A stretch of DNA of 16,202 nucleotides from the IMG/VR virus record IMGVR_UViG_2718218360_000018. One strand, 5' to 3'. This DNA comes from a virus. Lineage: Duplodnaviria; Heunggongvirae; Uroviricota; Caudoviricetes. The notes beneath the pieces are model-generated. The model saw only the letters and a list, made by a program, of their open reading frames with translations, was not told the DNA's origin and did no database searches. This document shows positions 542 to 14,906 of the stretch, piece after piece. The first letter of the stretch is position 1; the number at the start of each line of letters is the position of its first letter. Both the position numbers and the translations under genes were made by a program.

Positions 542-1579
542 TTAACGCTTATCCGCCACCAGTTTGAGCGCGTGTTCCAGCACGTTAATGTCTGCACCCG
601 CTTTATGGGCATTTTCACTTAAATAACGCCGCCACTGCCGCGCGCCAGGAATACCCTGGAACAAGCCCAACATATGCCGGGTAATATGGCCAAGATACGT
701 CCCCTGGCTGAGTTCACGCTCAATGTACGGATACATGGCGCGCACTACCGCCACCGGATCGGCATCGGTATCCGAGGAACCAAAGATCTCTCGGTCTACC
801 GCCGCCAGAATACCCGGATTCTGATACGCTTCGCGCCCGACCATCACGCCATCCATATGTTGCAAATGCGCTTTAGCCTCTTCCAGCGACTTGATACCAC
901 CGTTAATCGACATCGTCAGATGCGGAAAGTCACGCTTCAGTTGATACACACGCGGATAATCGAGCGGCGGGATTTCACGGTTTTCTTTCGGGCTTAACCC
1001 CGAAAGCCAGGCTTTACGTGCGTGGATGATGAACATCTCACACTCGCCTTTGCCGGAAACGGTGTTGATGAAATCGCAGAGAAATTCATAGCTGTCCTGG
1101 TCATCGATGCCAATACGCGTTTTCACCGTCACCGGAATCGACACCACATCGCGCATCGCTTTCACGCAGTCGGCAACCAGCTGCGCATTACCCATCAGAC
1201 ACGCACCAAACATGCCGTTCTGCACCCGGTCAGACGGGCAGCCGACATTCAGGTTGATCTCATCATATCCACGCGCTTCTGCCAGCTTCGCACACTGCGC
1301 CAGCGCCGCCGGATCGCTACCGCCGAGTTGCAACGCTACCGGATGTTCTTCTTCACTGTACGCCAGGTAATCACCTTTACCGTGAATAATCGCCCCTGTA
1401 GTCACCATTTCGGTATACAGCAACGTATTGCGGGAAAGCAGACGCAAGAAATAGCGGCAATGTCTGTCCGTCCAGTCGAGCATTGGTGCAACGCTAAACC
1501 GAGAATTCCAGTAAACACCAGTTTTTTCAGGCATCACGCTGGTTTGATTAATTTTTTGTGCTTCATGATTATCGTGCAT
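542..1579 (-). CDS. dusA: tRNA-dihydrouridine(20/20a) synthase DusA
   Basis: 345-aa ORF with dihydrouridine synthase features (TIM-barrel Dus family, conserved GCP motif NVGCPS). An alternative start at the internal Met (MPEKTG..., ATG 1532-1534) would give 330 aa. The 5' end overlaps the island direct repeat. Confidence 0.9.
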
Positions 1580-1606
1580 TTTTGAACATTTCAGGCTATT
1601 TTTCTC
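1476..1606. repeat. Left copy of imperfect direct repeat (att site) covering the dusA 5' end
   Basis: 1476-1502 (tcgagcattggtgcaacgctaaaccga) is identical to 14781-14807; similarity continues with mismatches to about 1606 / 14906. Confidence 0.7.
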
Positions 1607-1611
1607 GCGTT

Positions 1612-1647
1612 AGGTTCCCGCACAGGTTCCCACGTTTTATGGGAACC
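1612..1647. promoter_or_regulatory. Clustered GGTTCCC motifs (two direct, one inverted) between dusA and int: candidate integrase arm sites or operator
   Basis: aGGTTCCCgcac aGGTTCCCac gttttat GGGAACC; related motifs gGGTTCCCa and GGCTCCCac recur near the other repeat copy at 14719-14739. Confidence 0.3.
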
Positions 1648-1667
1648 CGAAATAACGAGGTCGTGTA

Positions 1668-2408
1668 ATGGCGTACTATAACATAGAGAAACGACTAAAA
1701 TCCGATGGCACACCACGCTATCGCTGTAATGTGATTATCAAAGAAAAAGGTGTTATCACTTACAGGGAAAGCAAAACATTCCCTAAACATGCTCATGCCA
1801 AAACATGGGGCACACAGAAAGTGATGGAATTAGATCTATATGGCATTCCATCATCAAATGCAGTTGACGGACTTACAGTCCGTGACTTACTACACAAATA
1901 TTTAAATGACCCAAATGCCGGAGGTAAAGCAGGCCGTACTAAAAGATATGTGCTGGAACTGCTTATGGATAGTGACATATCCGCGATCAAACTATCTGAA
2001 CTGACAGAAAATGACGTAATTGAACATTGCAGGCTAAGAAACAACGCTGGTGCAGGCCCAGCAACAGTCAGCCACGATGTTAGTTATCTTGGCAGTGTTC
2101 TGGATGCGGCAAAACCTGTATACGGAATCAATTACACATCAAACCCGGCGAAAAGCGCTCGTCCATATCTACTTAAACTCGGTTTGATTGGTAAATCAAA
2201 CCGTCGTAATCGTAGACCAGCATCTGATGAACTTGACATGCTCATTGAAGGCCTTCAACAACGATCTACTCATAAATGCTCAAAAATTCCGTTCGTTGAT
2301 ATCCTCAAATTTTCTGTGTGGTCCTGTATGCGAATCGGAGAAGTATGCCGGTTACGATGGGAAGATCTCGACCAAGAACAAAAATCTATACTAGTAAGAG
2401 ATAGGTAA
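1668..2408 (+). pseudogene. Tyrosine integrase (dusA-associated type), N-terminal fragment interrupted by an IS66-family element
   Basis: 246-aa ORF diverging from dusA; the frame runs into the IS left end, with the stop TAA (2406-2408) supplied by IS sequence. Removing the IS and one 8-bp duplication copy joins it in frame to 4855..5215, giving a 365-aa integrase. Confidence 0.8.
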
Positions 2409-2475
2409 GCGTACAGCCTGAACCGTCTGGTCAGAATCTGACGAATTAGACAAAGTGGTGTCCACCAAATAAGTA

Positions 2476-2877
2476 GTGGGAACCAAAGTATCAGATATGC
2501 AGAAAAATGTGACTCCCGGCAGGCGAAAAGGCTGCCCTAATTATCCTCCCGAATTTAAACAGCAGCTCGTTGCTGCCTCCTGTGAACCCGGGATATCCAT
2601 CTCAAAACTTGCTCTTGAAAATGGCATTAACGCCAATCTGTTGTTCAAATGGCGACAACAATGGCGCGAGGGAAAGCTGCTATTACCTTCTTCAGAGAGC
2701 CCCCAGCTACTTCCTGTGACTCTCGATGCAGCTGCCGAACAGCCAGAATCGCTCGCAGAGGACCCGGAAACCCTCAGTATCAGCTGTGAGGTAACGTTCC
2801 GGCACGGGACGCTCCGCTTCAATGGCAATGTCAGCGAAAAGCTCCTGACTCTGCTGATACAGGAACTGAAGCGATGA
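2476..2877 (+). CDS. tnpA: IS66-family accessory protein TnpA (Orf1)
   Basis: 133-aa ORF, first gene inside the IS; stop overlaps the tnpB start (ATGA). Start codon uncertain (GTG 2476 or ATG 2497). Confidence 0.75.
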   Translation: MGTKVSDMQKNVTPGRRKGCPNYPPEFKQQLVAASCEPGISISKLALENGINANLLFKWRQQWREGKLLLPSSESPQLLPVTLDAAAEQPESLAEDPETLSISCEVTFRHGTLRFNGNVSEKLLTLLIQELKR

Positions 2878-3221
2878 TCCCGTTACCTTCCGGGACCAAA
2901 ATTTGGCTGGTTGCCGGTATCACCGATATGAGAAATGGCTTCAACGGCCTGGCTGCGAAAGTACAAACGGCGCTGAAAGACGATCCCATGTCCGGCCATG
3001 TTTTCATTTTCCGGGGCCGCAGCGGCAGTCAGGTTAAACTGCTGTGGTCCACCGGTGACGGACTGTGCCTCCTGACCAAACGGCTGGAGCGTGGGCGCTT
3101 CGCCTGGCCGTCAGCCCGTGATGGCAAAGTGTTCCTTACGCAGGCGCAGCTGGCGATGCTGCTGGAAGGTATCGACTGGCGACAGCCTAAGCGGCTGCTG
3201 ACCTCCCTGACCATGCTGTAA
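2874..3221 (+). CDS. tnpB: IS66-family accessory protein TnpB (Orf2)
   Basis: 115-aa [29 protein letters not shown]..., characteristic of IS66 Orf2; translationally coupled to tnpA. Confidence 0.8.
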
Positions 3222-3270
3222 ATCTCTTTATCCTGGTTGTCACAGAATAAGCCCGGTAAAATACGGGCTT

Positions 3271-13683: not shown

Positions 13684-13716
13684 GAAAAAACCCGCCTGAA
13701 GGCGGGTTTTCAAAAA
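13684..13716. terminator. Bidirectional Rho-independent terminator
   Basis: Stem aacccgcc/ggcgggtt with loop tgaa (13689-13708), flanked by A-run and T-run; sits between convergent genes. Confidence 0.65.
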
Positions 13717-13729
13717 GCACCAGCTATGA

Positions 13730-13903
13730 TCATGCTGCTTTGCGACGACGAAGCTTACCCTGCTGCTCTTTACCAGAGACAGTAGCGTGAGTGAACGCAT
13801 TAGGAGCAGCCTTCATCAGAACTTCAACAGCAGCACCCATACCTGCGAATGCTTTCATTGTGTCGAACTTAACCTGTGGCTTGGTTGCTTTTTGATCTTT
13901 CAT
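13730..13903 (-). CDS. Small basic hypothetical protein (57 aa)
   Basis: Not in the ORF track (<60 aa). ATG at 13901-13903 preceded by GGGAG at 7-nt spacing; translation MKDQKATKPQVKFDTMKAFAGMGAAVEVLMKAAPNAFTHATVSGKEQQGKLRRRKAA; stop at 13730-13732. Confidence 0.4.
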   Translation of the reverse strand: MKDQKATKPQVKFDTMKAFAGMGAAVEVLMKAAPNAFTHATVSGKEQQGKLRRRKAA

Positions 13904-13947
13904 AGAAAACTCCCGAGACAGTAAAGGCGTCTCTAACCCTTTCTTTA

Positions 13948-13994
13948 AAGCTAGCTTGTTTCGCTAACTTATGCCAATCGATCATGTCGATTGG
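13948..13994. promoter_or_regulatory. Two perfect palindromes upstream of the small ORF (candidate operator sites)
   Basis: AAGCTAGCTT (13948-13957) and CCAATCGA-tcatg-TCGATTGG (13974-13994). Confidence 0.3.
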
Positions 13995-14099
13995 TGACAT
14001 CGTTTCTTAGTAGTTTAAGCACAAAACGACTGCCATAGATGTACCTTTAAGGTAATCTGGACGGGTATCCTACAATTTGTAGACCCTTCTCGTCTATAC

Positions 14100-14636
14100 C
14101 TACTGAGCAAATTTAAGAAAGATATCCTGCAGCTCATCAATGACTGCCGACATCACATAACCGCACTGTTCCATGCGGAAACCAAAAGACTCGTAATACT
14201 GCACCAGTTCTGGTACTGGCTCTACAATGTGGACAACTTTACATTCAACAGCTTTACAAAATATAAAAGCACTCATAAGAGTGAGTAAAACCATGCGCCC
14301 TTTCAATGGGTGAGATTCATCTTCTCTAGAAAACCTTTCGATCATATGGATACGAAAGATGTTTTCTTCAACCCCATAAACACAAATTGCTGCTCCTGAT
14401 GGTATTCCCTGAACCCGACCTTGCTGAACAAGTTTTATGCAGAACTCATACTTTTCTCTGGAGTTGCCATAGGTACTTAACGCATAGTCCCATTCAAGCT
14501 CACCATAGCCACCACACAGAATCTTGTAATCATCATCACTGAGCGGACCAACAGCAAGAGGTAAGCCGACATGATCAATAATCAACTGGATATTGTTACG
14601 TACTGATTGACCTATCTCGTCCAGGGTAAGCATCAT
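14100..14636 (-). CDS. Hypothetical protein, possible GNAT-fold acyltransferase
   Basis: 178-aa ORF in AT-rich DNA; C-terminal ...HPLKGRMVLLTLMSAFIFCKAVECKVVHI...ELVQYYESFGF resembles GNAT motifs A/B; candidate -10 TATAAT on the minus strand at 14667-14672. Confidence 0.5.
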   Translation of the reverse strand: MMLTLDEIGQSVRNNIQLIIDHVGLPLAVGPLSDDDYKILCGGYGELEWDYALSTYGNSREKYEFCIKLVQQGRVQGIPSGAAICVYGVEENIFRIHMIERFSREDESHPLKGRMVLLTLMSAFIFCKAVECKVVHIVEPVPELVQYYESFGFRMEQCGYVMSAVIDELQDIFLKFAQ

Positions 14637-14764
14637 GGCCTCTCAAGCGGAACACTAAAAGTCGCATTATATCTCATTCTTAAGCCGCGTATGGATTACA
14701 CCTTGAAATGAAAACGCCGGGTTCCCAATAGGCTCCCACAAAGTATATAACTATTTGTTTTTCA

Positions 14765-14884
14765 AAAACGGTACATCCTATCGAGCATTGGTGCAACGCT
14801 AAACCGACCACTCCAGTGAACGTCAGTTTTTTCAGGCATTGCGCTGGTTTGGTTGATTTTTTGCATTTCAGAATTACCGTGCAT
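14765..14884 (-). pseudogene. Orphan 5' fragment of dusA (displaced by island integration)
   Basis: Minus-strand translation [35 protein letters not shown] then diverges and stops (RMYRF*); compare the dusA N-terminus [35 protein letters not shown]. Confidence 0.65.
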
Positions 14885-14906
14885 TTTCAAATGTAGAGAT
14901 TATTTT
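14781..14906. repeat. Right copy of imperfect direct repeat (att site), a diverged copy of the dusA 5' region
   Basis: 27-bp identity with 1476-1502, then mismatch-containing similarity over about 100 bp including the dusA start region. Confidence 0.7.

Follow-up and report, generated by a model that had tools for sequence, protein, structure and literature searches.

Background

The DusA-associated integrases were defined by Farrugia et al. (2015; PMC4482086), whose Table S1 lists an island in the O157:H7 strain EC4115 of 10,855 bp and 46.1% guanine plus cytosine (GC) under the description 'Phage remnant'. For dusA-specific elements, the PrtN-domain protein RdfN was shown to be the directionality factor of recombination (Durand et al. 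2021; PMC8409611), and in Escherichia coli O157:H7 strain SS17 a phage region of ~12 kb between yjbK and dusA, designated region 21, was reported to be lacking in Sakai and EDL933 (Cote et al. 2015; PMC4321836). Here we describe a stretch of viral DNA of 16,202 nucleotides (IMG/VR record IMGVR_UViG_2718218360_000018), referred to as the window throughout, in which an island bounded by direct repeats occupies dusA's 5' end, the gene of a tyrosine integrase (int) diverging from that gene. SS17 region 21 is probably the same island.

We interpret positions ~1484-14788 of the window as a defective mEp460-type lambdoid prophage that entered dusA by dusA-specific integration at codons 33-35, later suffered a large deletion, and then received the insertion sequence (IS) ISEc8 in its integrase gene, a reading to which we assign a probability of roughly 93%. 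The element, the integrase family, the target and the repair of dusA are already known from published work, and what we add to that account is the integrase gene split by ISEc8, the match to the phage attachment site (attP), the deletion junction, an 8-bp crossover, a set of candidate arm repeats and a list of the cargo.

The insertion site and the two dusA starts

The 27-mer TCGAGCATTGGTGCAACGCTAAACCGA is present in exact copies at 1476-1502 and 14781-14807, with identity stopping at both edges, and by chance about 7e-9 exact pairs of 27 bp would be expected in 16.2 kb. A repeat search together with MAFFT alignment widened this core to 1466-1582 and 14771-14887, giving a repeat of 117 nt with 83% identity at a spacing of 13,305 bp. 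An earlier interpretation made from the letters of this DNA, which we call the sequence-only reading, had described an identical 27-bp core embedded in imperfect similarity at both ends of the island, and this description was borne out; chance similarity, which it had considered as a way in which it might fail, is ruled out by the expectation just given. The similarity is one-sided, with 64/80 bases matching on the right side of the core, toward the dusA start, and 24/80 on the left side, which is the chance level. The features of the two boundaries are as follows.

542-1579, minus strand: dusA, an intact open reading frame (ORF) of 345 amino acids (aa) annotated as dusA and chimeric, with codons 1-32 (1484-1579) from the element and codon 33 onward native
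1466-1582, no strand: direct repeat on the side of the left attachment site (attL), with the identical core at 1476-1502 and the inferred strand-exchange region TCGAGCAT at 1476-1483
14771-14887, no strand: direct repeat on the side of the right attachment site (attR), with the core at 14781-14807, holding the orphaned native dusA 5' end

The dusA ATG lies at 1579, inside the left repeat copy, and this copy and the first 32 dusA codons are collinear with the attP region of the free phages mEp460 and mEp460_4F5. The DNA of the right copy is identical to that of the empty site and encodes the native DusA N-terminus; the orphaned 5' end (14783-14887, minus strand) specifies 35 native residues, then the five foreign residues RMYRF and a stop codon, and is annotated in RefSeq as a partial tRNA-dihydrouridine synthase. 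The element-supplied and native N-termini differ at 8 of 35 residues, and the core encodes the conserved FSVAPMLD segment of DusA. On this comparison, the dusA now in use carries a start supplied by the element, and the native start is the one stranded at 14783-14887. We assume by analogy with described elements (Farrugia 2015; Durand 2021) that the chimeric dusA is expressed, promoter-driven expression of a chimeric dusA having been shown by experiment for other elements only (PMC8409611).

To represent the unoccupied locus, a synthetic empty site was built by joining 901-1502 to 14808-15400 (1,195 bases), and it was searched against 5,426 complete E. coli genomes. Strain CDC#03-98 matched the join over 1,195/1,195 bases, at 100% and in one piece, at a locus where pspG, dusA, a DUF2713 gene and zur are contiguous. 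The sequence-only reading had predicted exactly such a site, joining approximately 1-1502 to 14808-end with one copy of the repeat; because the join matches CDC#03-98 in one piece, the breakpoints coincide with the repeats in empty-site genomes, and the displaced breakpoint that could have counted against the prediction was not found. At least 80% of the join was covered at one place in 3,609 of the 5,426 genomes, a count that suggests that about a third of complete E. coli genomes are without a simple empty site. In many genomes, for example that of the O25:H4 strain CU568-3, the empty-site match ends at query base 591, inside the core, and is limited to a single place in the record; dusA in such genomes may be occupied by a different element, or the upstream region may be divergent.

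The 13,305 bp between the repeats include 2,450 bp of insertion sequence and target duplication, and without the IS the island comes to 10,855 bp with 46.1% GC. The claim that a contrast in composition sets the island apart from its surroundings did not survive: the left backbone is at 51.1% GC, the right backbone at 34.8%, and the island is a mosaic of 38-58%, and composition therefore does not delimit it. We rejected composition as a boundary criterion, the right backbone being more deviant than most of the island DNA. This right chromosomal flank (14808-16202, consisting of the DUF2713 gene and a spacer) is lower in GC than any long stretch of the island and is present in island-free genomes.

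Interruption of the integrase gene by ISEc8

The tyrosine recombinase gene starts at 1668 on the plus strand, 88 bp from the divergent dusA start, and its product matches Pfam Phage_integrase with E 1e-20. The sequence-only reading of an intact dusA with a diverging integrase gene held for the 345-aa dusA and for the position of int on the other strand, but int itself is in two pieces.

1668-2404, plus strand: 5' fragment of the integrase gene, comprising codons 1-245 and part of 246 and keeping the first catalytic Arg region, MRIGE (residue 221)
2405-4846, plus strand: ISEc8 (IS66 family), 2,442 bp, with tnpA, tnpB and a 512-aa transposase
4855-5215, plus strand: 3' fragment of the integrase gene, in which the frame continues across the join with 1668-2404 to give a 365-aa protein

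The insertion is flanked by an 8-bp target duplication, AGAGATAG, at 2397-2404 and 4847-4854, and ends in terminal inverted repeats (2405-2426 and 4825-4846) beginning GTAAGCG. These repeats and the 8-bp duplication, along with matches to Pfam HTH_Tnp_1 and DDE_Tnp_IS66 and a 115-aa tnpB ORF, place it in the IS66 family, and the name ISEc8 was taken from the RefSeq annotation of identical copies. The product of the 5' fragment, 246 aa long, is without the HDLRR, GHRS and WQVY regions (residues 306-342), which contain the HxxR, H and Y catalytic residues. An intact integrase of a length equal to that of the rejoined protein (WP_000332269.1) is encoded at the same locus in other O157:H7 genomes and in STEC1575. 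An apparent 100% match of the window to O157:H7 strain C1-057 was discarded, as the ISEc8 of that strain sits in yfdR and not in int; the island has therefore been struck by ISEc8 independently at least twice, in int here and in yfdR in C1-057.

Because ISEc8 splits the integrase, this copy of the island is not expected to excise by itself, and the island is probably immobile. The alternative that it is still self-mobile, excising and reintegrating through its own integrase, has two things in its favour: attL and attR are intact, as are the candidate arm sites in their two clusters and the gene of the PrtN/RdfN-type excisionase (described below), and in ~200 other O157:H7 genomes the integrase gene of the island is uninterrupted. 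But with int cut after codon 245 and the truncated product deprived of HxxR/H/Y, excision would need an integrase supplied in trans, and we regard self-mobility as very unlikely.

Phage origin and internal deletion

In tblastn searches of phage records, the rejoined 365-aa integrase matched phages mEp460_4F5 and phiSTEC1575-Stx2k at 100%, Lys8385Vzw (Stx1a), 1720a-02 and several ECOR-derived phages at 99.5-99.7%, and mEp460 at 98.4%. The gene order in the free genomes of mEp460 and mEp460_4F5 is exonuclease, PrtN-like gene, 57-aa gene, 178-aa gene, short dusA-like segment, int, dinI and tail fibre, which is the right end of the island joined to its left end, and the dusA-like segment adjoins int in these free phage genomes, which are without dusA. 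The circular junction predicted from the island (14000-14807 followed by 1503-1800, 1,106 bp) aligned ungapped to the attP regions of mEp460 and mEp460_4F5 with 98.7-98.8% identity. The island thus appears to be the remnant of a lambda-like phage of the mEp460 type.

When compared with the 46,647-bp Stx2k prophage in the dusA of STEC1575, the island has kept both ends and is missing about 35.6 kb, with the break at a single place.

10804-10818, no strand: internal deletion junction, where the J remnant (J') on the minus strand meets a truncated DUF2303/YfdQ gene on the plus strand, located by collinearity with the STEC1575 prophage

The genes gone are those for tail, head, lysis, Q, replication and immunity. 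Measured against a complete mEp460-like prophage, the island retains only J', lom, the tail-fibre genes and a portion of the early-left region. Many Stx2a-converting phages contain a counterpart, ~96% identical, of the block 5551-10806, in which the nleG genes, those of the tail fibre, lom and J' lie.

Position of strand exchange

The phage attP core differs from the bacterial site (attB) at positions 9, 12 and 17, and that of mEp460_4F5 also at position 3. In the STEC1575 lysogen, attL has phage-type bases at positions 9, 12 and 17 and attR has bacterial-type bases, and strand exchange therefore took place within core positions 1-8, TCGAGCAT. This octamer corresponds to 1476-1483 and 14781-14788 in the window and to dusA codons M33-L34-D35, and the distant phages YeP1 and EKP1 have it in their attP as well. 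We rejected the full 27-bp identity as the region of crossover in light of the STEC1575 lysogen, which places the exchange in its first 8 bp. The rest of the core and the 80-bp tail instead represent the likeness of dusA to the phage mimic of its start. We infer that the integrase catalysed the integration event.

Entry of the island, or a reshaping of its junctions, by RecA-dependent homologous recombination across the ~107 bp of homology between dusA and the mimic, and not by site-specific recombination, is likewise very unlikely. The two copies do share 27 identical bases and a further 64/80 matches, and the bacterial-type bases in both cores of the island could reflect gene conversion, but the STEC1575 junctions are clean and reciprocal and switch inside the invariant TCGAGCAT, an octamer conserved in the attP of YeP1 and EKP1, and int is linked to dusA across genera. 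Moreover, had there been a single homologous exchange on the right of position 17, attR should contain bases of the phage type, and none are seen there. A third reading takes the repeats for a copy of the dusA start made locally, or for a coincidence, with no bearing on how the intervening DNA arrived; nothing speaks for it other than that a repeat is present, and it is refuted by a chance expectation of 7e-9, a left copy made of phage DNA that adjoins int in free phages without dusA, and an empty site with a single copy.

The integrase family and its target

Relatives of the integrase with 44-100% identity were found at 52 loci. A full-length divergent dusA lies ~90 bp upstream of int in 34 of them, in the Enterobacterales and beyond, with genera that include Kosakonia, Pluralibacter, Izhakiella, Mixta, Rosenbergiella, Xenorhabdus, Morganella and Proteus, and further Serratia, Plesiomonas, Shewanella, Idiomarina, Vibrio, Aeromonas and Algicola. 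Several of the others (L018, L027 and L031 among them) are on contigs whose shortness permits no verdict. Close relatives of int without dusA within 3 kb upstream were observed at L022, L024-L033, L039, L046 and L047, in particular as second copies in Xenorhabdus and Serratia, and a published note that a minority of dusA-type integrases use other sites fits these loci. Among the complete E. coli genomes, the module of dusA mimic and int is present in 729 of 5,426.

The window shows the traits by which Farrugia et al. (2015) recognise the family, namely insertion in the 5' end of dusA (here at codons 33-35), a divergent int, direct repeats and a restored dusA reading frame. The proposal that the island corresponds to the dusA-specific integrative elements, which provide a replacement 5' end for the gene, is accordingly upheld by the linkage of int and dusA, the collinearity with free-phage attP and the entry in Table S1.

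Candidate arm sites and the dusA-int spacer

Short repeats flank the core on both arms of the attachment site.

1613-1647, plus strand: candidate arm-type cluster of the P' arm, with GGTTCCC at 1613, GGTTCCC at 1625 and an inverted GGGAACC at 1641, in the 88-bp spacer between dusA and int
14720-14739, plus strand: candidate arm-type pair of the P arm, GGTTCCCAA-T-AGGCTCCCAC, with GGTTCCC at 14720 and GGCTCCC at 14731, 61 and 50 bp before the right core

The two direct copies and one inverted copy of the P' cluster lie 137-165 bp after the core, and the candidate sites together span an attP of about 230 bp. In STEC1575, likeness to the window begins exactly at the P-arm pair, and the DNA further left is unrelated. 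A repeat unit is found at equal positions on both arms in other elements, as GCACCCC in Yersinia phage YeP1, GTACACC in EKP1 and GGACACC elsewhere (the coordinates in two of the comparison loci are 1246-1265 and 1444-1480 in L059, and 1247-1265 and 1444-1480 in L060). Across ~25 loci the unit varies, and the 12-bp spacing and the direct-direct-inverted layout are fixed. The type of unit tracks integrase residues 5, 20-24 and 30-36, a correlation that shared descent could also yield. Counted over the whole window, GGTTCCCAC occurs 7 times where 3.0 would be expected, and a count of 7 is reached in 9 of 200 shuffles, so the count is not significant alone; the case for arm sites is made by the clustering at both att arms and the covariation across elements, not by the number of motifs.

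It is possible, though we lean against it, that these flanking repeats are arm-type sites for the N-terminal domain of the dusA-specific integrase. Since the P' cluster takes up the greater part of the 88-bp spacer, where the promoters of both int and the replacement dusA must also lie, binding by Int could couple the expression of dusA and int to the state of the element. The term 'arm-type' was not found in either of two papers on dusA elements that were searched for it.

Gene content of the island

Apart from int and ISEc8, the island contains the following genes and gene remnants.

5277-5525, plus strand: dinI-like gene; Pfam DinI, E 1.6e-18
5686-7689, minus strand: three NleG-family genes, NleG5-like (5686-6327), NleG (6409-7038) and NleG2-like (7111-7689)
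7795-9385, minus strand: side tail-fibre genes, a 439-aa fibre with collagen-like repeats and a separate 89-aa ORF that matches the fibre C-terminal domain; Pfam phage_tail_N, Collagen and Phage_fiber_C
9444-10043, minus strand: lom (Ail/Lom outer-membrane protein); Pfam Ail_Lom, E 2e-117
10111-10803, minus strand: C-terminal remnant of tail tip protein J; Pfam Ig_GpJ_C, annotated as a pseudogene
10819-13364, plus strand: remnant of the early-left region, with a partial DUF2303 gene (DUF2303'), the yfdR 5'-deoxynucleotidase gene, hypothetical genes, a methyltransferase pseudogene and a partial 3'-5' exonuclease gene
13374-13682, plus strand: PrtN-domain protein, candidate RdfN-type excisionase; Pfam PyocinActivator (PF11112), E 4e-23; PHROG 1300 'excisionase', E 8e-40
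13730-14636, minus strand: two attR-proximal genes of 57 aa and 178 aa, PHROG 2741 and 4350, function unknown; the same genes are in mEp460

All three nleG ORFs match Pfam T3SS_NleG, the C-terminal U-box-like domain of NleG proteins, with E 1e-43 to 4e-47. The NleG5-like protein matches PDB 5VGC (NleG5-1) with E 1.5e-136 and the NleG2-like protein 2KKX (NleG2-3/ECs2156) with E 1e-54. The tandem trio, which stands at 38.5% GC, is predicted to encode functional type III effectors, which would be secreted and act as E3 ligases.

In the tail-fibre gene, repeats with a 99-bp period at 8340-8602 encode the collagen-like Gly-X-Y pattern (Pfam Collagen), and they are the reason for a local GC peak of 65% and a strong AT skew. 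In the early-left remnant, the RefSeq annotation of identical islands gives an S-adenosylmethionine (SAM)-dependent methyltransferase with an internal stop at 12239-12712 and a 3'-5' exonuclease without its N-terminus at 13005-13364. Both defects are signs of decay in addition to the large deletion.

The PrtN-domain gene lies across attP from int and is attP-proximal in the free phage, and its product is a candidate recombination directionality factor. The 57-aa and 178-aa proteins had no Pfam or PADLOC match; their genes are downstream of the orphaned native dusA start and co-oriented with it. The slot next to attR is variable, with these two genes in the window and in mEp460, and genes for a Panacea-domain protein and a hypothetical protein in STEC1575 (L058 2097-3141). 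In the prophages compared, the genes in this slot are always oriented for possible read-in from the stranded native dusA promoter, and they could be read from that promoter only after integration.

Discussion

The history that we favour for the island begins with a phage whose attP carries a mimic of the first 32 dusA codons. Recombination at TCGAGCAT fused this mimic to the body of dusA (attL, 1476-1483), keeping the gene open, and stranded the native dusA start and promoter at the far end (attR, 14781-14887). The later deletion at 10804-10818 stripped away about 35.6 kb with the genes for morphogenesis, lysis, replication and immunity, leaving int, attL, attR and the PrtN/RdfN-type excisionase together with a cargo of three nleG genes, lom, the tail-fibre genes and dinI. 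ISEc8 then entered int downstream of the catalytic Arg codon and ahead of the HxxR/H/Y motifs, and the outcome would be an island able neither to form particles nor to excise itself.

Some observations count against this history. At positions 9, 12 and 17 the bases in both cores of the island are of the bacterial type, which sets them apart from the sequenced phages; the attP of the ancestor must therefore have been a variant one, or else homogenisation of the two copies followed later. The allele with the IS is seen in this window alone, a junction query of 2200-2600 having found ISEc8 at this position of int in one piece in 0 of the 5,426 complete E. coli genomes. A consensus scan of 1450-1750, including the 88-bp spacer before the element-supplied dusA start, found no sigma-70-like promoter. 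Finally, neither excision nor a circular form is observable from sequence.

The island marks certain O157:H7 lineages, and in this its practical value is modest. The strain gains three NleG effector genes from it, and the ISEc8 in int makes it a clear case of a prophage remnant fixed in place. The mapping of the crossover to 8 bp and the element-specific arm repeats may be useful for dissecting dusA-specific recombination or for engineering integrases. As a discovery the island carries little weight, having already been catalogued for EC4115.

Comparison with known systems

The closest described system is the EC4115 island itself (NC_011353.1 5179273..5190127, ECH74115_5530-5551), which has the same locus, length and GC content as the island of the window minus ISEc8; of the two, only the window has ISEc8 in int. 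Apart from the IS, the whole window is matched at ~100% identity by ~200 complete O157:H7 genomes. Among phages, mEp460, mEp460_4F5, phiSTEC1575-Stx2k, the Stx1a phage Lys8385Vzw and 1720a-02 have integrases that are 98-100% identical to that of the island, and mEp460 and mEp460_4F5 further share with it an attP region at 98.7-98.8% and the order exonuclease-PrtN-57aa-178aa-attP-int-dinI-tail fibre. The mEp460-type phages and the dusA-integrating Stx phages are complete, at 42-51 kb, whereas the island is without about 35.6 kb and has the nleG triad between dinI and the tail fibre.

Vibrio IMEVchUSA3 and its kin (Durand et al. 2021) likewise target the 5' end of dusA and provide it with a new N-terminus, and their int and PrtN-domain directionality factor are on either side of attP. 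Those elements are SGI1-like and mobilisable, under the control of IncC plasmid activators, whereas the island is a phage remnant without transfer genes. The attP/Int/Xis system of lambda also pairs a tyrosine integrase with a short crossover flanked by repeated arm sites over ~230 bp, the arm sites of the island being candidates, and in both the excisionase gene is the last one before attP in the early-left block. Unlike in lambda, int and the excisionase gene of the island lie on opposite sides of attP, and the target lies inside a protein-coding gene that the phage repairs.

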